DNA of 64,000 bases from an uncultured Methanosarcinales archaeon (GCA_964362535.1 CAYIEN010000003.1:6018-70017), one strand, 5' to 3'; shown: positions 2,802-63,478, numbered from the stretch's first letter. Made by a program: numbers and translations. The notes: generated from the sequence alone by a model not told the origin.

Positions 2802-4210
2802 CCGACGCTACCTTCCATTTCTAATTCGATGAGTTTGTTGAGTTCAACCGCGTATTCCATGGGAAGTTCTTTGGTAAATTCGTTGATGAATCCGAGAACA
2901 ATCAACGCCTTTGCCTGCGCTTCGTTCAACCCGCGGCTCATCAAGTAAAAGATTTGGTCCTCATTGAGCTTTCCAACCGTCGCTTCGTGCGCAATACTGG
3001 CAGTTTCTTCCTCAATCTTCATCGTCGGATACGTGTCTGAACGTGACAATTCGTCGAGTAACAATGCGTCGCATTGGACCGTGCTGCTGACTCCCGTGCA
3101 TCCTTTTGCAACTCGGATAAGTCCTCTGTAGCTTGTTCTGCCGCCGTCCTTGCTCACTGATTTGGAGATGACTTGTGATTTTGTGTTTTTTGCTAAGTGA
3201 AGAATCTTTGTGCCCGCATCCTGATGCTGACCTTTGCCCGCGAACGCAATACTCAAGATGTTAGCTTTCGCGCCTTCGCCCTTCAAAATGACTGACGGGT
3301 ATTTCATCGTAAGTTTGCTTCCTAAGTTGCCGTCAATCCATTCGACCGTTGCAAATTCGTGGGCCAATGCTCGCTTTGTGACAAGATTGTAAACGTTACT
3401 GCTCCAGTTTTGGATGGTAACGTATCTTACGAATGCGTTTTTGTGTGCAATGACTTCGACAACCGCACCGTGCAACGAATCTGTGCTGTAAACGGGAGCC
3501 GTGCAGCCTTCGATGTACGTGACTGATGCACCTTCGTCAACGATGATGAGTGTTCGTTCAAATTGACCGACGTTCTTCGCGTTGATTCTGAAATAGGCTT
3601 GAAGAGGGAGGTTGACTTTGACGCCTTTCGGAATGTAAATAAATGAGCCACCGCTCCAAAACGCGGTGTTCAAAGCAGCGAACTTGTTGTCGCCTGACGG
3701 AACAACGCTGGCGAAATACTTCTGTACTAACTCTGGCTGTTGCTTCAATGCAGTGTCCATGTCAAGGAAAATAACACCTTGCTTTGCAAGGTCTTCATTC
3801 AGCTTGTGGTAAACCGTCTCGGATTCGTACTGCGCGCCGACGCCGCCCAAGAATTTCTTTTCTGCTTCCGGAATACCCAAACGGTCGAACGTGTTTTTGA
3901 TGTCTGCCGGAACGTCATCCCACGAATGCTCGGTCTTTTCGTTCGGCTTGAGATAGTAAGTGATTTTGTCATAATCAATTTTGGTTAAGTCTCCGCCCCA
4001 CATCGGCGTCGGCTTGTTCACGAAAATCTTGAGCGCTTCCAAACGCTTGTTCAGCATCCAGGCAGGCTCGTTCTTCTGTTTTGAGATTTCTCTTACGACG
4101 TCTTCAGACATTCCTTGCTTCGTTCGAAACACTGCTGTTTCTGCATCGTGAAAACCATACTTTTCCTCATACGACGCGTTAACTGATTGAAGTTCTGTGT
4201 TCTGACTCAC
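2798..4210 (-). CDS. sufB: Fe-S cluster assembly protein SufB
   Basis: 470 aa, highly conserved SufB sequence throughout; GTG start overlapping sufC stop (GTGA). Confidence 0.9.
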
Positions 4211-4950
4211 ACCGGAACCTCATGCAGCCACGCATACCCTTGCTTTTCGAGCTTTGTTGGCAAGGTTGCGTCGCCTGATTGCGCTATCTTTCCGTCAATC
4301 AAGACATGCACGTGGTCAGGCTTCAAGTGTTCAAGAATTCTGTTGTAGTGCGTGATGACTAAACTGCCGAACGTCGGACTTCTGAGCGTGTTGACCGCGT
4401 GCGCGACGAGTTTCAAGCTGTCAATGTCCAAGCCAGAGTCTGTTTCGTCCAAGACGGCGATTGTAGGTGCGCTGAGCAAGAGCTGCATGATTTCCACACG
4501 CTTCTTTTCTCCGCCAGACAAACCAACATTTAATGCGCGGTCACCGAAACCTTGCGGCAAACCAACCAATTCAAACGCGTTTGCTAACGCTCGTTGGAAT
4601 TCAATTGCCTTCGAATTCGGATGTGTGGCTTTGTACAGCGTAAACAAGAAACTTCGCATTGCGAGACCGGGGATTTCGACTGGGTGCTGGAACGCCAAGA
4701 AGAGACCGAGTTTTGCACGTTCGTCAGGGCTTAATTCGAGAATAGACTTGCCGTCGTAGAGAATGTCTCCACTGGTGACTTCATAACCGGGATGACCTGC
4801 GATGACGTAGCTGAGCGTACTCTTGCCCGAGCCATTCGGACCCATCAGTGCGTGAATCTCGCCCGGCTTAATTGTTAGGGTGAGTCCTTTGAGGATTGCT
4901 TTACCATGCGCGCTGACGTGCAAATTCTTGATTTCAAGTGTTTTGTTCAT
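4207..4950 (-). CDS. sufC: Fe-S cluster assembly ATPase SufC
   Basis: Walker [13 protein letters not shown] signature LSGGEKKR, Walker [13 protein letters not shown]-loop. Confidence 0.9.
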
Positions 4951-6527: not shown

Positions 6528-6572
6528 GAAATTCTCTGAACGTTTTGACTTTTTAAGAGTTGTGTATTGTTT

Positions 6573-7433
6573 TTAAGTGCAGTTTTCTGAGCAGGATTCT
6601 TCTTTGAGATTTGGTACAGACACAACATTTTTTGCGTACATGGTAGGCAAATGTTTTGGCGTAAAAATATATTGAACGAGTAAGAAGGAATTGTAAGGTT
6701 CAGGCGTTATTTGGCGTGCCGAAATTACTCCGTATGCAGGCGCTTGATGATAGGGTTTATTAGTTCTATCCTCAAGTGTAATTAGTTCATTTGAGTAGTA
6801 AATTGTTTCTAATGGAGGTTTTACGATTCCAAAGGTTTCAACTTTAAATCTCACTATTTCCCCGGGCTCATAAAATTCTTTATCAAAAGTTACATTAATT
6901 CCACTGAATACGAAAAAAATGATGATTGTGAATGCATAAATGAGCACTAATCCCCAAAAAAGAAGGCAGGACTTTATAATGAGCGGATATATTGCGTTAT
7001 TTTTTAATTTATTAAATAGAAGAGGTGCCGCCGTATGCAAATAAATAAGAGTGGAGGTAAACGTGAAAATGAAAAACAACCAAATATTTAAAATAGCAAA
7101 AACTGCAATGTTCAACAAAACATATAATCCGAAACTCATCACTCCAAGTAAAAAATCAGGGTGGTAAAAACTAACTAAAAGGTCATTTTCTTGTTCTTTG
7201 TTTGTGCTGTGTGTTTTAAGTAGAGGAAATAGCACTGCAACCCAAGCAACAAGACAACATGAAAGTAGAATAGTCGTAATTACTGCAATAATTGAAATTA
7301 AATCTGAGACTGGAGGAGGATAGGTAGATTTTGAAATTTTAAACAAAAATGTTCCAAGGATGAAAATAAGTGTTGAAATCGTGCCAAAAATGGCTGATAA
7401 TTTTCCATTATGTGAATCATTCTCGGAATTCAT
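6573..7433 (-). CDS. Integral membrane protein, function unknown
   Basis: 286 aa with at least 6 predicted hydrophobic helices; no recognisable motif. Confidence 0.4.
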   Translation of the reverse strand: MNSENDSHNGKLSAIFGTISTLIFILGTFLFKISKSTYPPPVSDLISIIAVITTILLSCCLVAWVAVLFPLLKTHSTNKEQENDLLVSFYHPDFLLGVMSFGLYVLLNIAVFAILNIWLFFIFTFTSTLIYLHTAAPLLFNKLKNNAIYPLIIKSCLLFWGLVLIYAFTIIIFFVFSGINVTFDKEFYEPGEIVRFKVETFGIVKPPLETIYYSNELITLEDRTNKPYHQAPAYGVISARQITPEPYNSFLLVQYIFTPKHLPTMYAKNVVSVPNLKEESCSENCT

Positions 7434-35793: not shown

Positions 35794-36015
35794 TTACAGC
35801 GGAGTGTATATTGCGTGACAGGTTCTACAACCGTATGCTAAGTTGTCATCCCATAAGTCATTGCTACCGCACTTCATGCAGCGACCAGTGTAGTGACCGG
35901 TCGGTTCGTTATTTGGATTGTTTGCACTTTTCATTCTCGCAAGTTGTTGCGGAGAAAGTGCTCCTTTAACGCGCTTTTCTAATGCTTCATCATTAGCAGA
36001 TCGTTCAAACATCAA
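35794..36015 (-). CDS. Small zinc-ribbon protein (73 aa)
   Basis: C-terminal CMKCGS...CRTCH four-Cys zinc ribbon; ATGA-type overlap with nusA stop. Confidence 0.4.
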   Translation of the reverse strand: MMFERSANDEALEKRVKGALSPQQLARMKSANNPNNEPTGHYTGRCMKCGSNDLWDDNLAYGCRTCHAIYTPL

Positions 36016-36422
36016 GCAACCTTTATTTCACTAATCGGAAAGTGTCGTTTGACAATCATTTCTGTTGAGCGTAAATTCATCGCGCTTCTGCCAATCAACA
36101 GTCCACGCATTTGGTGGTTTGCCGCGTGCAGCGTAATCTTTGCGTCTTCCTGCACGATGTCTTGCAATTCCAGAGGATAAACAACATTGCGAATGAACTG
36201 TTTCAAATCAGTAGAATACTCAATAAATCGAATCTTCTTTTTAAGCAAGTTTTCGAGCTTCTTAACAACAACGCCGCCCTTGCCGATACAGCGAGCAATC
36301 GAGTCAGCCGGAATCAAAAAAGTAACTCTCATTTCCTCGAAAATAACATCCTTCGGAGTAACCCCCGAAAGCTGCTCGACAAGATTCATGATTTTGAGAT
36401 CTTCAAAACCGTACGTGACCAC
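36012..36422 (-). CDS. nusA: Archaeal NusA-like protein (two KH domains)
   Basis: IGKGGVVVKKLENLL and GLLIGRSAMNLRSTEMIV KH GxxG loops; position after rpl30e as in archaeal RNAP operon; GTG start. Confidence 0.8.
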   Translation of the reverse strand: MVTYGFEDLKIMNLVEQLSGVTPKDVIFEEMRVTFLIPADSIARCIGKGGVVVKKLENLLKKKIRFIEYSTDLKQFIRNVVYPLELQDIVQEDAKITLHAANHQMRGLLIGRSAMNLRSTEMIVKRHFPISEIKVA

Positions 36423-36428
36423 GAGAAC

Positions 36429-36698
36429 TTACTCCGTCACGCCAAGAATGCTGACGCCAAACTGCTTTCTGCAGAGCGCGCCCACTTCATCACTTGACAA
36501 CGGAAGCTCAACAACCTGCACGCCAGCCAATTCAGCAAAACGCTTAACGTCCTGACAAACATCTGCCTTGCAGTTCTTTGAGGTAAATACACGCTTAACG
36601 CCGCCCGTCTTGACGAGCTTCATCGTGCGTTCCTGGCCCAAAATAACTTTGCCCGCTTCAAACAACTTCTTGATTTCAACAATAACATCCTTTGCCAT
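36429..36698 (-). CDS. rpl30e: 50S ribosomal protein L30e
   Basis: 89 aa, KLFEAGKVILGQERTMKLVKTGGVKRVFTSKNC typical L30e. Confidence 0.85.
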   Translation of the reverse strand: MAKDVIVEIKKLFEAGKVILGQERTMKLVKTGGVKRVFTSKNCKADVCQDVKRFAELAGVQVVELPLSSDEVGALCRKQFGVSILGVTE

Positions 36699-36699
36699 T

Positions 36700-37833
36700 T
36701 TACAATTTCTCCTTTACGATTTTAGCGACAAGACCGGGCAAACCCGTACCGATCGGCACAGGCTGGTTCAACATGACGTTCTCAACAACCGAGTTGAGCT
36801 CGTCACTCTCGCCGACAAGCGCGGCCTCAATAATGTGCAAGATAGGAGTTTCGAAAGAAGCTCGTGCAAGCACGGAGTTCTTCTCGCTGATAACACCATA
36901 TCGGGTAACTCCCTTGACTTCACCTGAAACTGTCATCGTGTCAACAACCAACATAAAATGGCGGACATCAATATCAATACCCTGCGATTGGAATGCGTGC
37001 GAAACTTCATTCAACACAGCCTGACGCGCGGCTTCAATGCCGAGAACCGAATAGACTTCCAACACATCGTTGGTCGTCGTCTTGGTCGCGTCAACAAAGT
37101 CAAGCTCCAACACTTTCTTCAAGTTTGAGCCAGCCGTGATAATCAAAAACTCATCCTTTCTACGGACAGGCAACACCTGACGGATTTCCTTAATTCCAGT
37201 GATGTAGACCTTCTTGACTTCTTCCTTCATCTTATACAACTCATTCAGACTTTCGCCCTTGAGCTTGATCGAGATTTCAGAACCTTCGCCCTTGATGGTT
37301 GCTCCCTTAATTCCCTTTTCGAGAGCCTTGACAACCGTTGAAGCAGTAATGCTCAATTCCTTCATGCGTTCGGAGCTCAACTTTGCTTCGATTTTCAAGT
37401 CGATAACATTCATGTTGAATTCAGTAACGAGTTCGCCAAACGTGGTTTCTTTGAGAGCAAGCGCGAGTTCGCGAATGTCCTTGCCTTTGTTATACGGAGC
37501 TTTCAGGAAGATTTCCATCTTCGGAGTCTTGATTTCCTTGCGGCCGTCAAGCAATTCAACGACACGAGGCAAACCCATCGTGACGTTCATTTCGGCAACG
37601 CCCGCGAAGTGGAACGTGTTCAACGTCATCTGCGTCGAAGGTTCACCGATACTTTCCGCGCCAACAACGCCGACGCTTTCTCCCGCGTCAACCTGCGCAG
37701 CCATGAAGTCAGCATAGACTTGCTTTGCAACTTTCTTCAACTTGTTTGCCGGACACTTTTCTTCGATTTCCTTCAACAAGTGCTCGGGAAGTTTGCCGCT
37801 GTAATCATCAAGGTCTTTGTGCATGGTTTTCAC
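36700..37833 (-). CDS. rpoA2: DNA-directed RNA polymerase subunit A''
   Basis: 377 aa, conserved A'' (Rpb1 C-terminal) sequence; GTGA overlap with A' stop. Confidence 0.95.
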
Positions 37834-40598
37834 TCGGTCGCATCAATAATGCGTTGAACATCAATTTTACCGCTTTCCGTACGGCTCACGTCGAGGCCAT
37901 CCTCGCCGTATTTGAACTGGATAATCTTACCCGTCGCGTCACGGACCGTGCCGTCATACTCGACGCGCAAGTCCTGCAATGCGTTCGCCAAACGTCGGTA
38001 CAAATAACCAGACTTCGGCGTACGCAAGGCGGTGTCGACCAATGAGTCTCGACCTGTAACGTTACAGAAGAAAAACTCCTGCGGCGTCAAGCCTTTCTTG
38101 AAGTTGTTTCGCACGAAACCGTGCGCTGCAGGGCTCAAGTCGCCCTTGGTAAAGCATGAAAGTGTTCGTCCCTTGTAACCCTTGGTGATTCGGCTGCCAC
38201 GGAGTGCCTGTTGACCAACGACTGCCGAGATCTGTGACATTTGCAAAATGTTTCCTCGCGCGCCAGAGTCAACCATGATCTTGGTGTCCGTGTTCATCTT
38301 GGACTTTTCCTTGACCGTCTGACCTGCTTTGTTACGCGCCTTGTTGAGCAATTCCAAAATCTTCAATTCGAGCGTTTCGAAAACACTTCGACCAGGGAAT
38401 GCTTCCAACTTACCATCATGGTACTGCTGGATCAATGCCTGGACTTCGTTTTCGGTCTCGACCATTGTCGACTCGATTTGTTCTTGCGCCGCAACAGGTA
38501 AGTCGTAGTCGCTGATTAACGTGCTGAAACCCGTTCGTTGCAAATAGTCGCTGCTGAGCTTGAGCATTTTGTGCAAAATATCCGTTGAAACGTGCGAGCC
38601 ATACTGGCGGTGCAACGCGCGGAGCAAAAGTCCAGAACCCTCGCCACCAATCGCGTTTTCGTCAATAACTCCTTGCGTGAGCTTACCGTTCTTTACAACA
38701 ACTGGTTCGCTTGAGCGAGATGTTCCGGTGTAGTTGAAGTCGTCCGGCATCAATGTGCTGAACACATCTTTACCGTCAACCATTTTTTTGTTCGGCAACT
38801 TCGCGTACGTATCAACACCAATGCTGATGAGGAACTGAATTGCGTCTTCACGCGTAAATTCACCAAACTTTGTCAACGCGTATGCGCCTGACAATGCTTC
38901 TTGGATTCCACCGATGACCGGCAATCCGAATCTCGGCGAGATAATCTGCGTTCGGACATCCATTAAGATTTCCGCTTCAGCTCTCGCTTCTTCTGTCTGC
39001 GGAACGTGCAAGTTCATTTCGTCGCCGTCAAAGTCTGCGTTGTAAGGCGCACAAACTGCCGGGTTCAAACGCAACGTTCGACCAGGCAAGACTCGGACCT
39101 TGTGACACATCGTGCTCATTCTGTGCAAGCACGGCTGTCGGTTGAAAATAACAACGTCGCCGTCCATCATGTGACGTTCGACAACATAACCAGGCTGCAA
39201 TTCTTCGAGAGCTGCTTCCTTGGTCTCTTCCGTGATTTTCTTTTTCTTACCGTCCGGACGAACAACGTAGTTCGCGCCGGGATACGCGGTCGGACCGTTC
39301 TTGATGAAGTTCTTCAAGTACGCCATGTTCCACGGCTGCACAACTTCAGGAATCGTGACTTTCATCGCAACGACTTTGGGAACGCCAACTTCGTTGATCT
39401 TAATCATGGGGTCGGGCGAGATAACCGTACGGGCGCAGAAGTTCGTTCGCTTACCCGCGAGGTTGTGTCGAATACGACCTTCCTTGCTCTTGATACGCTC
39501 GGTCAACGTCTTCAACGGCTGACCAGATCGGTGTCGTGCCGGAGGCAACTGAGCGACATCGTTGTCAAAGAACGTTGTAACGTGATACTGGAGCAAGTCC
39601 CACAAGTCTTCAATAATGATTTCGGGAGCGCCTGCGTTAATGTTTTCGAACAAACGCTGGTTGATACGAACAATGTCGCCCATCTTGTGCGTCAAGTCGT
39701 CTTCCGAACGTTCGCCCGTTTCTAGCGTGATAGACGGACGCATCGTCACAGGAGGAACTGCTAATACGGTAAGAATCATCCATTCCGGTCTTGCGGTGAT
39801 GGGGTTCATCCCGAACATGATTGCGTCTTCGTCAGGAATCTTTTCCAAACGAGCACGAACTTCGATCGGGCTGATTCTGCGATCGCCTTCCATAAACGTG
39901 GTCGGCTTTTCGAGAACAATCTTGGTCTGCTTCGCGTTGCAGTGAGCGCACTTGCCGCCAGACTTCAAGCTGTCGATGATTGTCTTGATTGCTTTTCTGC
40001 GAGCGCGGAGGCCGCCTTCCTTCTCAATCTTTGCAAGAATATTCTTGCTCTTTTCCATCTTTTCCTGAGGAATCAAAATCTTACCGCACTCGTTGCACGT
40101 ACTGCGCAACAACGAAAGAATAACAGGAACGAACTTGATGTGCACAACAGGTCGTGCCAATTCGATGTAGCCGAAGTGACCAATACATTCCTTCAGCTTG
40201 CAACCGCACGTTTTACAGCGGAGACCCGGGTCGATAACGCCGAGTCGGATGTCCATCAAACCACCGTCGACAGGATAACCTTCCTTGTCGTAAAGTTCAG
40301 GCGTGACGACTTTGGCCGATGCCATTTTCTTGATCATTCGCGGGGAGAGAACTCCGAACACGATGCTTTGGACTTTCTTGTAAATAAAATGCGGTTGTGA
40401 GGATGAGATTTCCTTTCTTCCCGGTTCTGCAGAAACAGGAGCCGCAACAGCCTCGGTCTGCGGTTCGCTCGGAGCCGATCCCGCGACATCACCAGACTTC
40501 AACATGACTTCATCAACATTCTCTTCCGATTCCGGAGCGAGCTGTTCGATGTCGGCCTTTGTCTCTTTCGATGCTTTGGGTTTTGGCATTGTAATCAC
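37830..40598 (-). CDS. rpoA1: DNA-directed RNA polymerase subunit A'
   Basis: Zn-binding CxxC clusters, NADFDGDEM catalytic motif; start GTG 40598 or ATG 40589. Confidence 0.95.
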
Positions 40599-40954
40599 GC
40601 ACTAAGTTTTTCTTCCAATGTTTTAATTGCTGCAATCATGTGCGGAATGTTTGTTTCAACTTCAGTCATGTCTTTGCATTCTCTGCTGAATTCAATTTTG
40701 TTTTTGCTATTGTGATCTCGTAACATGAGCTCCATGCGGAATGGATTGTAATTGCCCGTTTTTTCAACGAGCATGTGTCCAACAGCTTTTTCGTTATTAA
40801 AAACGAAATTGTACAAGTGGTGAGGCGCATCTGGAGGGTTTCGTGCATTTTTTGTTTGTTCAATATCATATGCAGGGCAAATTTTTTGCAGTTCTGCGTA
40901 CAACATCTGTTCGACCTTTTGTCCTTCTTCCAGTGTCATGAGTGATATTGCCAT
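40595..40954 (-). CDS. Hypothetical 119 aa protein encoded between rpoB' and rpoA' (translationally coupled on both sides)
   Basis: Start 1 nt after rpoB' stop; stop overlaps rpoA' start; no recognisable motif. Confidence 0.5.
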   Translation of the reverse strand: MAISLMTLEEGQKVEQMLYAELQKICPAYDIEQTKNARNPPDAPHHLYNFVFNNEKAVGHMLVEKTGNYNPFRMELMLRDHNSKNKIEFSRECKDMTEVETNIPHMIAAIKTLEEKLSA

Positions 40955-40955
40955 T

Positions 40956-42761
40956 TTAGTACTTGCTCTTCAAGACCATCTTCGGATAAATTCCGAGAGA
41001 CTTGAATTCGTCAAGGATTAATTTGAATGCGTAGCTGATTTCGACATCGTTGACTTCGGTGTTCTCGCCGCAAATCGGACAGTAACGCTTGTTCTTGTAC
41101 GGGTCGTGAATCGCGATGATACCGCAGTTCTCGCAAATCGGAACAACTGTTTTGTCCGAGTCGAAACGTTCCTTCAACAACATGGAAGCGCCGTGCGCGA
41201 CAAGCGTGTCCTTTTCCATTTCTCCAAATCGCAAACCGCCTTCCTTTGCGCGACCTTCGGTCGGCTGGCGCGTAAGCAACTGGATGGGACCGCGGGCTCG
41301 CGACTGAATCTTGTTCGCGACCATATGCTTTAATCTCAAGTAATACATAGGACCGACATAAATCTTGGCCTGGAATTGTTCGCCCGTGATACCGTTGTAG
41401 AACGTTTCAACACCGTTCTCGCGGAAACCCAACGACTGCAATTCTTTTCTGATGGCTTCTTCAGGCTCGGCTTCGAAAGGCGTGCCGTCGATGTATCGGC
41501 CGCCAAGAGCGCCGACTTTGCTACCAATCAATTCAATTAAGTGTGAGAACGTCATTCGCGAAGGCAACGAGTGCGGCGAGAACAACATATCAGGAACAAT
41601 ACCTGAAGCGGTGAACGGCATGTCCGCGCTCGGAACAACCAAACCAACAACTCCCTTCTGACCGTGACGCGACGTAAACTTGTCGCCCACTTCAGGAATA
41701 CGCTGGTCTCGCAATCGAACCTGTACAAGCTTGTTACCTTCTTCGTTTTCTGTGATAAGGACAAAGTCAACAATACCTTCTTCGCCGTGCTTCAACGCAA
41801 CGCTCGATTCACGACGCGTGTTGCCCGCAAGACTGTATTCTTCCAATGAGTTCAAGAATCGCGGAGGAGAAGTTTTACCGATGATAACGTCTTCTTCTCG
41901 GACCTTTGCTTCCGGATAAATAATACCGTCGCCTTCCAAGTAGCGGTAGTCTTTTTCACTCTTGTAACCCTTGACTTCCTTGTCGGGAACCGCGATGTCA
42001 TCCATTAAGCCGCCAGAGTAACGCAATTCTTCCGCGCCTTCAGGGTGGAAGAACGTGCTTCGAGCGAAACCTCGGTCAATACTACCTTTGTTGATGATGA
42101 TTGCGTCTTCCATCGTGTAGCCACGGTAGCTCATAACCGCGACAACAACGTTCTGACCGCTCGCGTGCTTATCATAATGGCTCAATTCGTGCATCATGCT
42201 TTGAACGAGAGGCTTTTGCGGATAGTGCAAGACGTTAATGTCCATGTCCATTCGCGTGTGATAGTTCGCCGCGTACAATCCCATCGACTGACGCAAGTTC
42301 TTAACGCTAATAATAGCTCGAGGAGCGTGGCAATAGTTCGCGTACGGCATTAAGCTCGCACTCAAACCAAGCATTGCAACAGGAGAAATTTCTAAGTGCG
42401 TGTGTTCAGGAGTAAGATCAGCTTCTTGGAATGCAACCAATGCGTTTTCTTCTTCGCTTGCGTCAAGGAATTCGATAACGCCCTGTTCGAGCAAATCATT
42501 CCAACCAATTTCGTTCTTTTGCAACTGCTTGATGTGCTTCTCAGTCAGCATCGGAATGCCGTCCTTGACAACAATCAACGGTCGTCTTAATCGACCGCGG
42601 CCAGACTCGACCGTAATGCGATTCAATGATTCATTGTAAAACAAGTTGACTTGGTGAGCGACCGTTCCCTTGCGTCGTTCGGACTTAATCTGCTTGAGGA
42701 ATTCTTCCTTGTGCTCGACGTCGCCGACATACTTGCCGTTGAGGAATACTTCGGTACTCAT
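40956..42761 (-). CDS. rpoB1: DNA-directed RNA polymerase subunit B'
   Basis: 601 aa; C-terminal half of Rpb2 homolog incl. Zn ribbon CENCGIIA...CPICG. Confidence 0.95.
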   Translation of the reverse strand: MSTEVFLNGKYVGDVEHKEEFLKQIKSERRKGTVAHQVNLFYNESLNRITVESGRGRLRRPLIVVKDGIPMLTEKHIKQLQKNEIGWNDLLEQGVIEFLDASEEENALVAFQEADLTPEHTHLEISPVAMLGLSASLMPYANYCHAPRAIISVKNLRQSMGLYAANYHTRMDMDINVLHYPQKPLVQSMMHELSHYDKHASGQNVVVAVMSYRGYTMEDAIIINKGSIDRGFARSTFFHPEGAEELRYSGGLMDDIAVPDKEVKGYKSEKDYRYLEGDGIIYPEAKVREEDVIIGKTSPPRFLNSLEEYSLAGNTRRESSVALKHGEEGIVDFVLITENEEGNKLVQVRLRDQRIPEVGDKFTSRHGQKGVVGLVVPSADMPFTASGIVPDMLFSPHSLPSRMTFSHLIELIGSKVGALGGRYIDGTPFEAEPEEAIRKELQSLGFRENGVETFYNGITGEQFQAKIYVGPMYYLRLKHMVANKIQSRARGPIQLLTRQPTEGRAKEGGLRFGEMEKDTLVAHGASMLLKERFDSDKTVVPICENCGIIAIHDPYKNKRYCPICGENTEVNDVEISYAFKLILDEFKSLGIYPKMVLKSKY

Positions 42762-44245
42762 TGTGAAATCTCCTTCATGCCTGCGTGCTTCAACGCGGCC
42801 AATACTTCAGGTTCTTCTGCTTCGCGTGATACTTGTGCGAGGAGTGCGAGGTTCTTTCTGAGACCGATGTTGGTACCTTCAGGAGTTTCGCACGGGCACA
42901 AACGACCGAGGTGCGTTGCGTGAAGTTCTCGTGCTGCGAAGTTTTCTTGGCTTGAGCTAAGCGGAGAAACAACTCGCTGCAAGTGCGACATCTTGTCCAA
43001 ATGATTGATGCGCTGCATTCGTTGCGAGATTCCCTTACGCGAACCGACCCAGTTGCCCGTGGCCATCGCGCTGTAAATTCTCGACGTGAGAAGCTTTTCT
43101 CTGATAATAACTTTGATGCTGGGGAACTTGCCACGCTTGACAAGTCGTTGGAAGTTGTAGAGCAAGTCGCCGATCAAAACCTTCAAGTTCACGCGGAACA
43201 AGTCGGTAAGCAAGTCGCCTGCGAGCTTCAATCTCTTGTTGCCGTAATGGTCCTTGTCGTCCTGCGCGATTTCCTTGTTCGCGACAAGCATGAATTTGCG
43301 GAGCATCTTGCAAAGATTTCTTGCCTTTGCAATTCTGTTTTCTTTCTTGATGCCGAGATGGGGAAGCAAGTATTTGTCGAGGAGCTCGTCCATTCGTTCC
43401 AAACGAACATCCTTCGCCTGCGTGATGCCGACCTTCTTCGCGACATTGTCGATCGCGTCATCCATCGTCTTGATGTTGGCGTGCTCGAACAAGTTAATGA
43501 GAATTTCGTCAAACTGGCGTTCCTTGCTGACCGCATTCATGATATCTTCGTCCTTCAAAAGACCCAATGCCTTGATCAACATGATAAGCGGAACTCGCTT
43601 GACTCGCGTGAATGAAAGGTAGAAGACGCCGTCCTTGAGGCGTTCGATGGTGTGCGGAACACGGAATGCCGCGAATTCGCTGTAAATCTTGCCGACGTAT
43701 TCTGACGTTCCACCGTCGTGCTCGATGGTGAACTGGTTTGCCGCGAGATCTTCAACATTAACGAGAACTCGCTCAGTACCGTTGATAACGAAATAGCCAC
43801 CAGGGTCGTCAGGATCCTCTCCCTTTTCCATCAATTCATCGCGGCCCATCTTGTGCAAGTGGCACAAATTGCTCTTCAACATGATAGGCAAGCTACCGAT
43901 TTGCGTCGTGATACTCTCACGCTGCACTTCATTGATATGGCTCGAAACTTCGAGGAAAACAGGAGCTGCATACGAGATTTTTCTCAATCGTGCTTCAACC
44001 GGATAAATAGGACGCTTGCTACCGTCGGCTTCCGTGATTTCAGGCTTGCCGATAATGATTTTGTCAAATCGAATCTTGAACGATTCAACATTCGGAGGAA
44101 TAATTGTCGGCTCGATAATTTTGCTTTCATCGACGACACGTTGCAACATTTTTTCAACAAAATCGTTGAAGCTTTCAATATTGGAACGAACGAGCGAATT
44201 CTCCTGGAAGTATTTTTCGAAAATAAGCTTTGAGTAACTCGCCAT
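42758..44245 (-). CDS. rpoB2: DNA-directed RNA polymerase subunit B''
   Basis: 495 aa; N-terminal half of Rpb2 homolog; ATGA overlap with B'. Confidence 0.95.
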   Translation of the reverse strand: MASYSKLIFEKYFQENSLVRSNIESFNDFVEKMLQRVVDESKIIEPTIIPPNVESFKIRFDKIIIGKPEITEADGSKRPIYPVEARLRKISYAAPVFLEVSSHINEVQRESITTQIGSLPIMLKSNLCHLHKMGRDELMEKGEDPDDPGGYFVINGTERVLVNVEDLAANQFTIEHDGGTSEYVGKIYSEFAAFRVPHTIERLKDGVFYLSFTRVKRVPLIMLIKALGLLKDEDIMNAVSKERQFDEILINLFEHANIKTMDDAIDNVAKKVGITQAKDVRLERMDELLDKYLLPHLGIKKENRIAKARNLCKMLRKFMLVANKEIAQDDKDHYGNKRLKLAGDLLTDLFRVNLKVLIGDLLYNFQRLVKRGKFPSIKVIIREKLLTSRIYSAMATGNWVGSRKGISQRMQRINHLDKMSHLQRVVSPLSSSQENFAARELHATHLGRLCPCETPEGTNIGLRKNLALLAQVSREAEEPEVLAALKHAGMKEISQ

Positions 44246-44246
44246 A

Positions 44247-44489
44247 TTAACCCGTCACCACACGTCGGTAAAACACGGTTTCGCCCGCTGTCGGCGAAGG
44301 GCGAGTAATCTTGACAATGTCATCTTCCTGCACATTCAAATCTTCAATCGCAGGATCAGAAATGAGAATACGAGGTAATTGGTATGCCGTAATACTGTAC
44401 TTTTCGAGAAGTTCTTTTACTTCCTTATCAGACGCCTTCGAATGTTTAGGGACAAGTGTGTGCTTGGTGACGTCGTATTTTGCTTTCAT
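44247..44489 (-). CDS. rpoH: DNA-directed RNA polymerase subunit H (Rpb5-like)
   Basis: 80 aa; HTLVPKHSKASDKEVKELLEKY...LPRILISDPA typical RpoH. Confidence 0.85.
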   Translation of the reverse strand: MKAKYDVTKHTLVPKHSKASDKEVKELLEKYSITAYQLPRILISDPAIEDLNVQEDDIVKITRPSPTAGETVFYRRVVTG

Positions 44490-44627: not shown

Positions 44628-44630
44628 TCA

Positions 44631-44704
44631 CGGGCCACAAGGGATTTGAACCCTTAACCCACTGGTTAAAAGCCAGTTGCTCTACCAGGTTGAGCTAGTG
44701 GCCC
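44631..44704 (-). tRNA. tRNA-Lys (anticodon UUU)
   Basis: Cloverleaf: acceptor GGGCCAC/GTGGCCC, D GCTC/GAGC, anticodon stem ACTGG/CCAGT loop CTTTTAA, T arm AAGGG-TTCAAAT-CCCTT, discriminator G. Confidence 0.8.
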
Positions 44705-44908
44705 AACGTTTAATCGCACTCACTCTGTAGAGTGATGCGTGAGTGTTGAGCAACTTGTCTTCCGTGGTAGAATAATTGTGAATGGTTTTCCCCTCAAAGC
44801 GCGCTATGGCTATATATAAAGTAAAGCCAAGAAACAAGGGGGTTGTTTATAAAGCTTGTGGTTTCATGAGTAAAAAAGAAGAAAAAAACAAAGAAAAACC
44901 TGTTTTCC

Positions 44909-46663: not shown

Positions 46664-46697
46664 TCACCCCTCCACAGACGTCTTACTGAATGCTGAA

Positions 46698-46769
46698 CGC
46701 CCTGGCCGGGATTTGAACCCGGGTCGGAACCGCGACAGGGTTCCATCCTAACCGCTAGACTACCAGAGC
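46698..46769 (-). tRNA. tRNA-Asp (anticodon GUC)
   Basis: Acceptor GCTCTGG/CCAGGGC (one G-U), D GTCT/GGAT, anticodon stem GAACC/GGTTC loop CTGTCGC, T arm CCGGG-TTCAAAT-CCCGG. Confidence 0.85.
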
Positions 46770-46796
46770 AATATACTCACCCTTCCTTCGAGTTGC

Positions 46797-46875: not shown

Positions 46876-47006
46876 CCCCTCCTAGCTCAACGGTGGAGCG
46901 TCCGGCTGTAGACGAAAAGTCACTCGCAGACCATGGTCCCAGGACCAGGAATGAACGCGAGTCAGCAGAACCCGGAAGGCTGCTGGTTCAAATCCGGCGG
47001 AGGGGA
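46876..47006 (+). tRNA. tRNA-Tyr (anticodon GUA) with about 59-nt intron at canonical 37/38 position (46912-46970)
   Basis: Archaeal Tyr identity C1-G72 (CCCCTCC/GGAGGGG), A73; D GCTC/GAGC; anticodon stem TCCGG ... CCGGA split by intron; loop CTGTAG; T arm GCTGG-TTCAAAT-CCGGC. Confidence 0.7.
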
Positions 47007-47225
47007 TATTTTTTGATTTGGACCAGCAAGTTTGTTTTTGGTCATTACAGCCTATAACGCTAGAAAACTGCATTTCTTCATTTTTTAGTTGTTTTGTCAT
47101 TTGTCGAAAATGCTCAAAATTGAACGAAACTTGATGGAATCCTGCCATTTTCACTCTTTCAGGAGGTTGAGTGTGAATGAAATTAATAAATCCATCCCTG
47201 GCAAAACGGATTTGAACCGTTAAGT

Positions 47226-47939
47226 TCAGTTTGAAACTGTTAGTTGCAAATCAACTGGGAATGTCAGGTAAGATCTTATCTTTTTGTTAAAAGTAACATT
47301 CATATCTTTAACGATGTATTTCGCAGATATATCTGCATCAAAAAAACAAATTCCGCAGCCTGTTGAAACAGCACTCACATTTTCTCCCGGTTTCATTTTA
47401 AGAGGATTGAAAGTGAATGAAGCATAGCTTCTATCTTTTCCTGCAAAAGGGTAACAATTAGCTTTTTTAAAACCTTGAATTACATCTTTATTTCCTAAGG
47501 GGATTATACGTTCAGCTCGAGAAGGTAATAACGGAACTTGATAGTATTCATCGTAGTCTTCAGGCATCTCACAAGAATGAATAAAAATATCTACCTCCCG
47601 AAAAGTGTAATCTCCGGTATTTGTTACAATCAAGGGCAGGTATTCGCCAAATGCAGCGGAATAAAGGAAAGGCGAAATTTCTACTTCAATATTAGGCACT
47701 TTTTGCAAATCATCGCGAATTTGAGCATAATTGTAGGATACCTGAAGTTGTATGCAAAATAAAAGTACTGAAAACAAAATGAACAAAAATAAAAAGCGTC
47801 TTTTAACGCTAAAAAAGTTTGCGATTAAATGTGTTGTGCGATTCCAAGTTCCGTGAATGTGTTGGTAACAATTGTTTGTTCCTTCAGATGCCTCTCTATC
47901 ACAAGGGTTGCCTTCATTAGTAGTTCCTTGGCATTTCAC
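47226..47939 (-). CDS. Membrane protein with N-terminal Cys/His-rich segment and single TM
   Basis: CQGTTNEGNPCDREASEGTNNCYQHIH then hydrophobic FLFLFILFSVLLFCI helix. Confidence 0.4.
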   Translation of the reverse strand: MKCQGTTNEGNPCDREASEGTNNCYQHIHGTWNRTTHLIANFFSVKRRFLFLFILFSVLLFCIQLQVSYNYAQIRDDLQKVPNIEVEISPFLYSAAFGEYLPLIVTNTGDYTFREVDIFIHSCEMPEDYDEYYQVPLLPSRAERIIPLGNKDVIQGFKKANCYPFAGKDRSYASFTFNPLKMKPGENVSAVSTGCGICFFDADISAKYIVKDMNVTFNKKIRSYLTFPVDLQLTVSN

Positions 47940-50021: not shown

Positions 50022-50085
50022 TAGGAAGAAAAGGTGAATCTTTTTATGAGAAAGTTCTTTAAATCAGCATCTTTCATCAGGCATA

Positions 50086-50829
50086 ATGGCGGATAAAGAT
50101 CAACAAAGTGTAGGTTGTGCGAGAAACATTAACGAAAGTTCGGCATTGGGCATTCTGAGTGAACAGGTGGATGAAGCGGGACTGCGTTTTTGTTGGGACA
50201 CTTTGCCTTCTGATAAACGGAATATTTTAAGGCCGGATTGCAAAAATATCGAAGATGTCATTCTGGACGCCGCACGTATGTACTTGAGTCCTTCATTTGT
50301 CTTTGATGGTCCTGAAGACTTTTCTAAAGGATCACTTGTATACATTCTCATGGTGGACTCAATACTTGAATTTATGGAGGGAGAAGTCCATATTGCTGGC
50401 GAAAAGCTCAAAACAAGATTTTCGACATTCACACAAGCTCCCTACGACTTGTTACCTGGCAAAGAAGTTATGCGTCTGAATTTTTATGAGCCAAAATCAA
50501 TAGCAGATTTAGGATGCGTTGCCGTTCACGAATTCTCGCACTTATACGACGCCCGAAGAAACAAACTCGCAATTGAGGAAGATACAAATCAGCTCCTACC
50601 TAGTGAAAAAACTCGATATGGCAGATCCATTACGCATGTTGTTTCAGAAGTAAAAGCTACACTTAGAGAGCTTATTTACGCAAAATCCTTAGATTGCAAT
50701 AAAGATGAAAAAGATCGCCTTCTGGCAATAAATTTACGGAGATTAACTAAAGAACTAGATGAATTAAGCGTTAGTAATGTTCAAGAGAAAATATGGTTAG
50801 AACTCGATATTGGTAAATACTTGAAGTAA
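50086..50829 (+). CDS. Putative zinc metallopeptidase (HExxH motif)
   Basis: VAVHEFSHLYD is the single HExxH element; otherwise unassigned. Confidence 0.35.
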   Translation: MADKDQQSVGCARNINESSALGILSEQVDEAGLRFCWDTLPSDKRNILRPDCKNIEDVILDAARMYLSPSFVFDGPEDFSKGSLVYILMVDSILEFMEGEVHIAGEKLKTRFSTFTQAPYDLLPGKEVMRLNFYEPKSIADLGCVAVHEFSHLYDARRNKLAIEEDTNQLLPSEKTRYGRSITHVVSEVKATLRELIYAKSLDCNKDEKDRLLAINLRRLTKELDELSVSNVQEKIWLELDIGKYLK

Positions 50830-61472: not shown

Positions 61473-62765
61473 ATGGCAAACACTCTCCGCGACAAAGTCA
61501 TTGCATTGTACCGCAAGATTGGCGACTACCATTACGCTCCTGTTGATGGCAATGTTAACGGCAAACATTTTTCTACAAATCACGCATTAACAGCATTGAC
61601 CTTTTTGATGAACAAGACGCAATTAGCTCTCGGAGATCCCGGATGGGGTAAAACAACGGGAGCACAAGTCATTTCGAGCTTGTTCTCAGGACTCCCTTTC
61701 GATCTTTATCAAAGACTCATGATGAAGGGTCACCCAGGACAGTACGAAGAAAAATTGGTTGCTCGACCGCACTTCGGAGCCTTGTCTAAAGGTGACGAGC
61801 GAGTCGTGTGGCAAGGATACATCGGCATGGACGCCCTCATCGTTGATGAAATCAAGCACTTGCCCAAAGAAACACAAGCATTACTCTTAGAAGGCATCAG
61901 AACAGGAACGTGGACTTATTTGAACGATTCCATTGTCGAAGGAGAAAAACCCACCTACTTCACCTCTAACGATTGGGGCGAGGCTAACGGCGAAATCATG
62001 GAAGCACTCGCAGACCGAATCGCCGTAGTCATCGAAGAAAAAGCACTCCCTCCTCAACTTGATTTTGAATTAGCGGATGAAAGAGTCAAGAAAGACCTCT
62101 CGCGACCTGATGAAGCACAGCAATGCATTGATGAACTCGCAAAAAACAACTTCCAAGGCTTCAAAACCACTCTTGATTCAGTACGCAAAACTGGTTTGGC
62201 AAAAAATGACGCCGAAAAAGTCCGCACCGAAATCAAAAGCATGAAGCAGACATCCAACGACACCCACTACTTCCTGTGGGGATTGGCTTCAGAAATTAAC
62301 TTCTCTGAACAATACGGAGTCAAACGCGCACGAGACGCCGTCAGCGACCACACACATGACAAAAAGTATGCGGGAGTCAAGATGGCACGAAGCATGAGCC
62401 CACGACCCTTAATGGCAGCATGGCAGTACGCCCAAGGATTAGCTTGGCTTCTCGGAGACAAAACCGTCGACGTCAGCCACCTACAAACAATCATCCCTCA
62501 CGTACTCGCTCACCGTTCTAAATTCTCTAACGACTTCAAAAACTCGCATACTGGTGACGTTCGCAAAGATTATCAAGAACTACACCTTGCAAAAACACTC
62601 GTGAAGGAATACTTCGAAGGAACCTACACCAATTCTGTACTCAAAGTAAAGTCGGCAATCGAGGCTATCCAAAAAGGCCAGAAAATCAACGCAAAAGGCG
62701 CTGACCACCCGCTCGTACGGCAACTGGACTACTGGAACCAGAACATGCCGCAGAGCAACATTTGA
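61473..62765 (+). CDS. MoxR-like AAA+ ATPase
   Basis: Walker A LALGDPGWGKTT, Walker B LIVDEIKHLPKETQALLLEGIRTGTW (MoxR-type DEINRAPPKTQSALLEAMQE pattern), sensor region. Confidence 0.6.
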   Translation: MANTLRDKVIALYRKIGDYHYAPVDGNVNGKHFSTNHALTALTFLMNKTQLALGDPGWGKTTGAQVISSLFSGLPFDLYQRLMMKGHPGQYEEKLVARPHFGALSKGDERVVWQGYIGMDALIVDEIKHLPKETQALLLEGIRTGTWTYLNDSIVEGEKPTYFTSNDWGEANGEIMEALADRIAVVIEEKALPPQLDFELADERVKKDLSRPDEAQQCIDELAKNNFQGFKTTLDSVRKTGLAKNDAEKVRTEIKSMKQTSNDTHYFLWGLASEINFSEQYGVKRARDAVSDHTHDKKYAGVKMARSMSPRPLMAAWQYAQGLAWLLGDKTVDVSHLQTIIPHVLAHRSKFSNDFKNSHTGDVRKDYQELHLAKTLVKEYFEGTYTNSVLKVKSAIEAIQKGQKINAKGADHPLVRQLDYWNQNMPQSNI

Positions 62766-63478
62766 AACTAGCCGACTTAGTGGGAAATCTGTCTCCTGAA
62801 GAAAAATTCGAAAAGAACACGTTCGTTCCTGACAAAAACAGCCTTCAAAAGATCATAGATATTTATGACAAAAGCATTCAGTTGTCGTTCACTAATGATG
62901 ATGCACGAGTACAGCACGTAACGCGTGAACTTTCTACTGTGGAAGACTTACCACACGAATACTTACAATTAATCTCCGAACGCATTCCTGAACCGAGAGA
63001 TCATCGAATAAGTGATTTTCTTGGAGCTGTTTGCAAAAAGCTTATTGGAAATCCTACACTTATTCTTCATGAATTAAGATGGCGCTTCGGAGACAAACTT
63101 GATATCGGCGACAGAATCGTTACCGTTATTGGAAACGTTTCAGTTCTAGGTTCATGCATGCAATCAGGAACAATTCATTTGAAAGGATATGTGAACAGCG
63201 CAGGAACAGGAATGTATGGCGGGAAATTACTCGTTGAAGACACCTCATTTCAAACGGGACCTGGAATGCGAGGTGGTCACATTTACGTTAAAGGAGATAG
63301 CCATCACGTAGCCTGGGAAGCAACAGGAGGAACAATAACCTGCTATGGCGAAGCAACCGGACATTTAGGATACAAATCACACTCAGGCTGCACAATACAC
63401 CTTCAAGGAAACCAAATACCACTTATTGATAACGAGTGCAAAGCAACAATCTATCACCGAGGAAGGAAACTTCAATGA
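62762..63478 (+). CDS. GXGXG-motif beta-helix domain protein (glutamate synthase C-terminal / FwdC-like fold) with N-terminal unassigned about 110 aa
   Basis: Five successive G-x-x-M/x-x-GG-x-I-x-V/L-x-G turns: GSCMQSGTIHLKG, GTGMYGGKLLVE, GPGMRGGHIYVKG, ATGGTITCYG, SHSGCTIHLQG; ATGA overlap with AAA+ gene. Confidence 0.55.
   Translation: MKLADLVGNLSPEEKFEKNTFVPDKNSLQKIIDIYDKSIQLSFTNDDARVQHVTRELSTVEDLPHEYLQLISERIPEPRDHRISDFLGAVCKKLIGNPTLILHELRWRFGDKLDIGDRIVTVIGNVSVLGSCMQSGTIHLKGYVNSAGTGMYGGKLLVEDTSFQTGPGMRGGHIYVKGDSHHVAWEATGGTITCYGEATGHLGYKSHSGCTIHLQGNQIPLIDNECKATIYHRGRKLQ

Follow-up and report, generated by a model that had tools for sequence, protein, structure and literature searches.

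Results

Position of ORF X in the RNA polymerase operon

The core RNA polymerase (RNAP) operon of a groundwater DPANN archaeon (Woesearchaeal) contains an open reading frame (ORF) of 119 codons, referred to here as ORF X, between the genes rpoB' and rpoA'. The DNA analyzed, a stretch of 64,000 nt (CAYIEN010000003.1:6018-70017), is called the window, and coordinates are counted along it. Comparison with related operons indicated that X is an insertion of narrow distribution, situated at a point immediately upstream of rpoA' where small ORFs of several families recur.

All genes of the operon from rpoH to NusA-KH are encoded on the minus strand, and the identities of the neighbors of X were confirmed by Pfam (Table 1). 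A single A (40955) separates the ATG of X (40954-40952) from the rpoB' stop codon, and X ends with TGA at 40597-40595. The first-pass annotation had described a 119-amino-acid ORF beginning 1 nt after the rpoB' stop, and both the coordinates and the description proved accurate. The same TAA-N-ATG layout is found between rpoH and rpoB'' and between rpoA'' and L30e.

That annotation had also placed the TGA of X across the start codon of rpoA', and this detail required correction. The overlapped codon, GTG at 40598-40596, is the earliest codon at which the rpoA' frame could begin, and the ORF lister took it as the start; homology with the N-termini of sister rpoA' proteins gives it no support. 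The N-terminus in the window, MPKPKASKE, aligns with MPKAKPAKE of the sister loci L004, L006 and L007. Since sister rpoA' begins with MPKAKPAKE right after rpoB', the true start is probably ATG 40589-40587, located 5 nt after the TGA of X, and the overlapping GTG is probably not a real start. The genes rpoB', X and rpoA' are tightly coupled even with the 5-nt gap before the rpoA' ATG.

Table 1. Features of the RNAP operon in the window, and members of slot family A in other loci (locus numbering given before the colon).
Feature	Position	Strand	Basis and remarks
rpoH (Rpo5)	44247-44489	-	Pfam RNA_pol_Rpb5_C, E = 6e-28; stop codon, 1 nt, then ATG of rpoB''
rpoB'' (N-terminal half of split B subunit)	42758-44245	-	Pfam Rpb2 domains 1-3; ATGA overlap with rpoB'
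rpoB' (C-terminal half of B subunit)	40956-42761	-	Pfam Rpb2 domains 4-7; TAA at 40958-40956
ORF X, most likely an orphan protein-coding gene	40595-40954	-	119 codons, 119 amino acids, 13.8 kDa, isoelectric point 5.7
Insertion of 365 nt relative to sister genomes (ORF X and TTACA spacer)	40590-40954	-	Comparison with sister junctions; composition
TTACA spacer, 5 nt, between TGA of X and ATG of rpoA'	40590-40594	-	Sequence
rpoA'	37830-40589	-	Pfam Rpb1 domains 1-5; probable start ATG 40589-40587
rpoA''	36700-37833	-	Pfam Rpb1 domain 5; GTGA overlap with the end of rpoA'
L30e	36429-36698	-	Pfam
NusA-KH	36012-36422	-	Pfam
Family A member	L027:7802-8239		
Family A member	L028:7802-8239		
Family A member (P0005)	L090:1183-1560		
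Family A member (P0006)	L164:4001-4381		

ORF X is absent from sister genomes

For comparison, 80 species-representative genome loci were gathered with rpoB' as the query. In the nearest loci (L004, L005, L006 and L007), rpoB' was 83-87% identical to that of the window over the full protein, and over the C-terminal 300 amino acids the identity of close relatives reached 89-91% (L004, L006, L007 and the metagenome locus L085). The junction in L004, L006 and L007 reads TAC TAA C ATG CCA AAA, so that rpoB' abuts rpoA' with no ORF between them, and the same direct junction was found in L085. Because the sister genomes join rpoB' directly to rpoA', X together with the 5-nt spacer is a 365-nt insertion. 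It occupies the exact place of the 1-nt TAA-N-ATG junction of the sisters, and 360 of its 365 bases belong to the ORF. Both the insertion into the operon and its translational coupling, as originally annotated, were thereby borne out by the junction sequence and the sister genomes.

A different ORF was present at the same junction in L005. It starts as TAA-C-ATG, comprises at least 93 amino acids (the contig ends there) and is itself a strict orphan. The rpoB' proteins of L005 and L006 are 98% identical, yet only L005 of the two carries a junction ORF. Both the presence and the identity of the ORF thus change between very close genomes, and parsimony suggests that the ancestral state of this small clade was the absence of an ORF, followed by two independent acquisitions.

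The suggestion in the first-pass annotation that X could be a lineage-specific RNAP subunit was not upheld. X is missing from L004, L006, L007 and L085, a different ORF takes its place in L005, and no homologue was found at this position in related genomes or in the protein collections searched. Lack of conservation in close relatives is the outcome that the first-pass annotation had itself named as refuting its proposal. X is therefore an insertion in one population and not a conserved RNAP subunit, and since sister species lack it, it would be dispensable for RNAP.

Terminal or target-site repeats at the insert were limited to a chance-level 12-mer and a 4-nt AATG. Derivation of the 5' end of X from a duplicate of the rpoA' start was considered and rejected: the hint was weak, with an in-register identity to L004 of 24/48 nt (p = 7e-4 against the genome background), other windows of X reaching 22 and other references giving p = 0.015-0.39.

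Many GTDB records titled 'uncultured Methanosarcinales archaeon' (L004, L006, L009, L011, L012 and others) hold Woesearchaeal-type RNAP operons that are 70-87% identical to the window, and the 'Methanosarcinales' labels of these records are probably wrong.

Coding character of ORF X

At the local composition, the probability of an open frame of at least 119 codons was 2.7e-4 per frame, and 18 of 20,000 shuffles reached such a frame in any forward frame. A codon model built from 34 long ORFs of the window scored X at +0.435 bits/codon in frame, and the remaining five frames were negative. This value matches those of the neighboring genes rpoH (0.37), NusA (0.37) and L30e (0.51). GC content at codon positions 1, 2 and 3 was.50,.29 and.39, respectively, a coding-like order (GC1 > GC3 > GC2). 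The third-position value (GC3) is far under that of the RNAP genes (.58-.60), and the insert as a whole has a GC content of about 0.39 compared to about 0.50 in the flanks.

Structure prediction of X alone, carried out with AlphaFold2 (AF2) on the single sequence, gave a compact alpha/beta model with a mean predicted local distance difference test (pLDDT) score of 73.8 and a predicted template modeling score of 0.61. The model consists of a helix (residues 8-25), five strands and a second helix (residues 96-118). The predicted product is a soluble, mildly acidic alpha/beta protein of 13.8 kDa.

Three sibling contigs (L001-L003), assembled independently and derived from the same groundwater well (Hainich well H43), show the same arrangement, with 100% identity across X. 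An assembly chimera is unlikely for this segment because the three independent assemblies agree. Strain-level single-nucleotide polymorphisms (SNPs) between the window and its siblings numbered 0 in X, and those in the flanks were clustered. The differences from L001 and L003 form clustered runs, almost exclusively synonymous, at 38933-39024, 40227-40326, 41244-41271 and 41868-41904. These runs fall in conserved patches of rpoA' and rpoB', which suggests recombination tracts or a mosaic assembly of co-occurring strains.

A structured RNA element was also considered and rejected, since the insert had no Rfam match at E <= 1 and showed no unusual RNA stability (folding z-score -0.66). Taken from the frame, the codon usage and the predicted fold, X is most likely a real protein-coding gene.

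ORF X as an orphan

No homologue of X was recovered from large protein collections. X alone was returned when 5.8 billion protein clusters were searched by word index, and again when 1.84 billion representative proteins were scanned in full with phmmer; it carries the NCBI label 'hypothetical protein AABY01_03310, Nanoarchaeota archaeon'. Matches of X to itself were thus the sole ones among 15 billion proteins. No match to X was obtained in Pfam and NCBIfam at E <= 0.1-1, in PHROGs and PADLOC at E <= 1, or among PDB sequences at E <= 10, and IMG/VR viral contigs held no relative. Foldseek matches were weak and exclusively to uncharacterised phage proteins; the best match in PDB had E = 0.059 and a template modeling (TM) score of 0.44.

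Several candidate identities were rejected on these results. Membership in the archaeal RNAP subunits Rpo1-13 was not supported at the sequence or profile level by Pfam, NCBIfam or PDB. A homing endonuclease or intein remnant (LAGLIDADG, HNH, GIY-YIG, Hint) was discarded for want of a Pfam or PHROGs match, and a known defence, anti-defence or phage family was discarded after the PADLOC and PHROGs searches gave nothing. X has no homologue beyond its own population and bears a coding signature, as is typical of taxonomically restricted orphan genes. True inteins were readily detected in relatives, namely in rpoA' of L061 (3988-8163, 1392 amino acids, Intein_splicing) and in rpoA'' of L065 (4827-7517, 897 amino acids, Intein_splicing and LAGLIDADG_3).

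A recurrent slot immediately upstream of rpoA'

The junctions of the operon were surveyed in Woesearchaeal operons from 80 genome loci, 80 metagenome loci (collected with the rpoA' N-terminus as the query) and L164, and ORFs of at least 70 amino acids lying wholly inside each junction were counted. Between rpoB' and rpoA', such ORFs were present in 10 of 115 loci, in addition to the window and L005. The five other junctions yielded none: rpoH-rpoB'' (0/73), rpoB''-rpoB' (0/121), rpoA'-rpoA'' (0/95), rpoA''-L30e (0/47) and L30e-NusA (0/62), or 0/398 when pooled.

In one Woesearchaeal clade the operon is arranged as rpoH-B''-B'-A''-A', where rpoA'' precedes rpoA', in contrast to the canonical B'-A'-A'', and AT-rich spacers are frequent between the genes. 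The clade includes the genome loci L036, L050-L052, L055, L056, L058, L061-L063, L065 and L068, and further L092, L097, L104, L108, L113, L116, L117, L120, L122, L124, L128, L138, L142, L161 and L162. In this clade, ORFs of the same minimum size were found between rpoA'' and rpoA' in 4 of 27 loci and between rpoB' and rpoA'' in 1 of 23. The slot is specifically the position immediately upstream of rpoA'.

The occupants of the slot fall into at least eight families (X, L005-type, L010, family A, L053/L141, L088, L094 and L121), to which the B'-A''-A' clade adds L036, L051, L065 and L068. The main occupants are uniform in being 106-146 amino acids long (12-16 kDa), soluble and mostly acidic, and most begin 1-2 nt past the rpoB' stop. 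One ORF of the B'-A''-A' clade looks different: the 172-amino-acid ORF between rpoA'' and rpoA' in L065 (L065:7598-8113) has a hydrophobic, signal-peptide-like N-terminus and no Pfam domain, and it appears to be secreted or membrane-anchored, unlike the other slot ORFs.

No similarity between families was detected by BLASTP, phmmer, shuffled Smith-Waterman, hmmsearch or hhalign, all comparisons of X with other junction ORFs at the sequence and profile level were negative, and Pfam gave no significant domain in any of the eight junction ORFs scanned. A motif, [VLMI]ET[VLIN], spotted by eye in six slot ORFs was not retained after an unbiased k-mer test against shuffles (p >= 0.06). The AF2 model of the L005 ORF (pLDDT 72.3) has the same order of helix, beta-meander and helix as X. 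The Foldseek match lists of the two proteins did not overlap, and a Foldseek match of the L005 ORF to T4-like Alc (E = 0.08, TM 0.34) was regarded as noise.

The distribution of the slot ORFs is patchy. The nearest neighbors of the carriers, up to 97-99% identical in the rpoB' C-terminus, are usually without a slot ORF, and some lineages have an AT-rich non-coding spacer between rpoB' and rpoA' instead. The literature search found no report of the X insertion or of a slot proximal to rpoA'.

Family A, a slot family conserved in place

Family A comprises acidic proteins of 126-146 amino acids without a Pfam domain; in four lineages, their genes are placed precisely between rpoB' and rpoA' (Table 1). 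The L090 junction reads TAA-A-ATG, and in L164 the gene lies between an rpoB' that ends at 3999 and an rpoA' that starts at 4382. Identity among the family A proteins is 41-87%, against 96-99% for the rpoB' C-terminus, and their nonsynonymous divergence (dN) is 7-15 times that of rpoB'. The ratio of nonsynonymous to synonymous divergence (dN/dS) was 0.39-0.63 for distant pairs, in which motifs are kept, compared to 0.05-0.07 for rpoB' at comparable dS. This corresponds to weak purifying selection, and a slot gene can be maintained by selection, if weakly.

Identities of 41-47% within family A occur at 96% rpoB' identity. At this rate, slot homologues as far apart as the window and L005 (86% rpoB' identity) could no longer be recognized, and at that distance 'unrelated' and 'hyper-diverged' slot ORFs would look alike in sequence. 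X and family A share the same slot, a start 1 nt past the rpoB' stop, an rpoA' ATG 0-5 nt past their own stop, a similar size, an acidic character and the lack of a Pfam domain. They differ in that family A occurs in at least four lineages and X is without a relative, and in that no sequence or profile similarity connects them (hhalign probability 0.2%, hmmsearch -1.0 bits, Smith-Waterman z < 1).

Discussion

Proposed expression of ORF X

The start of X coincides exactly with the junction from which rpoA' is driven in the sister genomes. It has no obvious Shine-Dalgarno-like motif of its own; GGTGA or AGGAGA is found 8-14 nt upstream of the starts of rpoB'', rpoB' and L30e, and the Shine-Dalgarno-like GTGAT lies 6-10 nt upstream of the rpoA' ATG, inside the end of X. 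X is probably transcribed on an rpoH-B''-B'-X-A'-A'' mRNA. Ribosomes ending rpoB' would re-initiate on X and then on rpoA'. The amount of X produced would then be close to that of RNAP, and as long as the frame of X stays open, rpoA' would keep its coupled translation. The co-expression with RNAP subunits that had been predicted from the outset would hold on the operon anatomy and the tight coupling.

Interpretation of ORF X and of the slot

We favor, with moderate confidence, the interpretation that X is a real and presumably translated gene, an orphan specific to one population and accessory or passenger in nature, situated in a permissive and recurrent slot upstream of rpoA'. Several observations weigh against it. 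The pLDDT exceeded 65 in only 2 of the 5 AF2 models of X, the lower GC3 and the lack of homologues are equally expected of a non-functional insert, and no terminal repeats or mobile-element signatures explain the arrival of the segment. In addition, the closest family A pair has a dN/dS of 0.99-1.04, when rpoB' gives 0.066-0.068 at the same dS, and its 438 nt contain neither an indel nor a stop codon, and because of this value of about 1.0, some slot ORFs may drift neutrally with just the open frame kept. The same data would fit X as a translated relay without protein function, that is, foreign or junk DNA kept open to carry ribosomes from rpoB' to rpoA', its sequence free to drift. The extent to which the ORF fills the inserted bases, the orphan character of all slot ORFs and the GC3 of X under that of the flanking genes point in this direction too. 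We nevertheless consider a mere relay improbable: the codon score of X equals that of bona fide neighboring genes, compact alpha/beta folds were predicted for both X and the L005 ORF (pLDDT 72-74), which is uncommon for random sequence, distant family A members keep motifs at a dN/dS of 0.4-0.6, and the AT-rich non-coding spacers of some lineages imply that an open bridge is not obligatory.

It is also conceivable, though rather doubtful, that X is a lineage-specific RNAP-associated factor, in line with the proposal of the first-pass annotation. It would be a small acidic protein, produced in step with the large subunits, which binds RNAP, perhaps at the variable N-terminal extension of RpoA', and modulates its assembly or activity, the different slot ORFs being fast-evolving versions with the same role. 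Consistent with this are the tight coupling inside the core operon, the recurrence of small ORFs upstream of rpoA', the conservation of family A in place under a dN/dS of 0.4-0.6, the uniform size and acidity of the slot ORFs, and the fact that the slot tracks rpoA' and not rpoB', as seen in the B'-A''-A' clade. The predicted order of helix, beta-meander and helix shared by X and the L005 ORF would agree as well, and at the rate of family A, common ancestry of the slot ORFs would no longer be detectable. However, the nearest relatives do without X, so their RNAP does not need it, and X resembles no known RNAP subunit or transcription factor; the hhalign comparison with family A, the k-mer test for a shared motif and the non-overlapping Foldseek lists all failed to connect X to other slot ORFs. 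A broader proposal, which we regard as unlikely, is that the slot is a site for hypervariable proteins of about 12-16 kDa that are co-translated with RNAP and bind it, X being one allele. Such proteins might be the point of contact in an arms race with RNAP inhibitors encoded by viruses, or they might modulate transcription according to host or niche in these symbionts, and evolution at 7-15 times the dN of rpoB' would make alleles of different species look unrelated. Finally, a mobile or selfish cassette directed at the junction, whether viral, plasmid-borne or homing, would account for the precise insertion between conserved genes, the GC content below that of the flanks, the difference in presence between genomes at 98% rpoB' identity, the different cassettes at one site and the weak Foldseek matches to phage proteins only. 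We consider it very improbable, as X lacks any domain of a nuclease, integrase or transposase, the 4-nt AATG was all that was found in the way of terminal or target-site repeats, and neither IMG/VR nor any protein collection searched held a relative.

Comparison with known systems

The subunits Rpo13 and Rpo8/RpoG are lineage-restricted archaeal RNAP subunits of Crenarchaeota, seen in Sulfolobus RNAP structures; they are conserved across whole phyla or orders and encoded away from the rpoB/rpoA junction. Like them, X is small, lies outside the universal subunit set and would accompany the large RNAP subunits. Unlike them, it is confined to one population and absent in sisters, and it has no detectable similarity to them.

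ORFan or moron-like insertions, known from phage and prokaryote genomes, resemble X more closely in being promoter-less, small ORFs of lower GC content placed precisely between conserved genes and patchy among relatives. The host locus of X differs: it is the core RNAP operon of a cellular organism, both essential and translationally coupled, and ORFs without recognizable kinship have used the same junction repeatedly. ATV ORF145/RIP, Sulfolobus TFS4, phage T7 Gp2 and T4 Alc all act on RNAP and are small, fast-evolving and in many cases acidic. They offer a possible functional analogy only, as their genes lie outside the RNAP operon and they give no significant sequence or fold match to X. As far as sequence and fold searches go, the nearest known counterparts of X are moron-like insertions and orphan genes of restricted taxonomic range.

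Few gene arrays of archaea are as conserved as the core RNAP operon, and an inserted, co-translated gene within it is unusual. X alone is an orphan of no assignable function; the site-specific recurrence of slot ORFs is unexpected, testable and more useful. If slot proteins bind RNAP, they would be transcription accessory factors of a new class, lineage-specific and fast-evolving, in archaea with reduced genomes. If they do not, the slot would be a natural example of gene birth or capture in which expression is kept by translational coupling in an essential operon.

Additional observations

In the window, rpoA' has an N-terminal extension of about 70 amino acids of low complexity, rich in K, E, A and P (40380-40589, minus strand), which precedes the conserved core. 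The length and sequence of this extension are highly variable in relatives, and L081 has about 100 additional K/E-rich residues.

Four further long ORFs of the window (6572-7433, 47225-47939, 50085-50829 and 62761-63478) combine low GC3 (0.27-0.34) with low codon scores, and may be recently acquired or weakly constrained genes.

A tRNA-Lys(ttt) gene lies directly upstream of rpoH, and tRNA positions were noted at 44630-44705 (minus strand), 46697-46770 (minus strand) and 46876-47006 (plus strand). The last of these, a match of 131 nt found by Rfam and not by ARAGORN, is probably an intron-containing tRNA.

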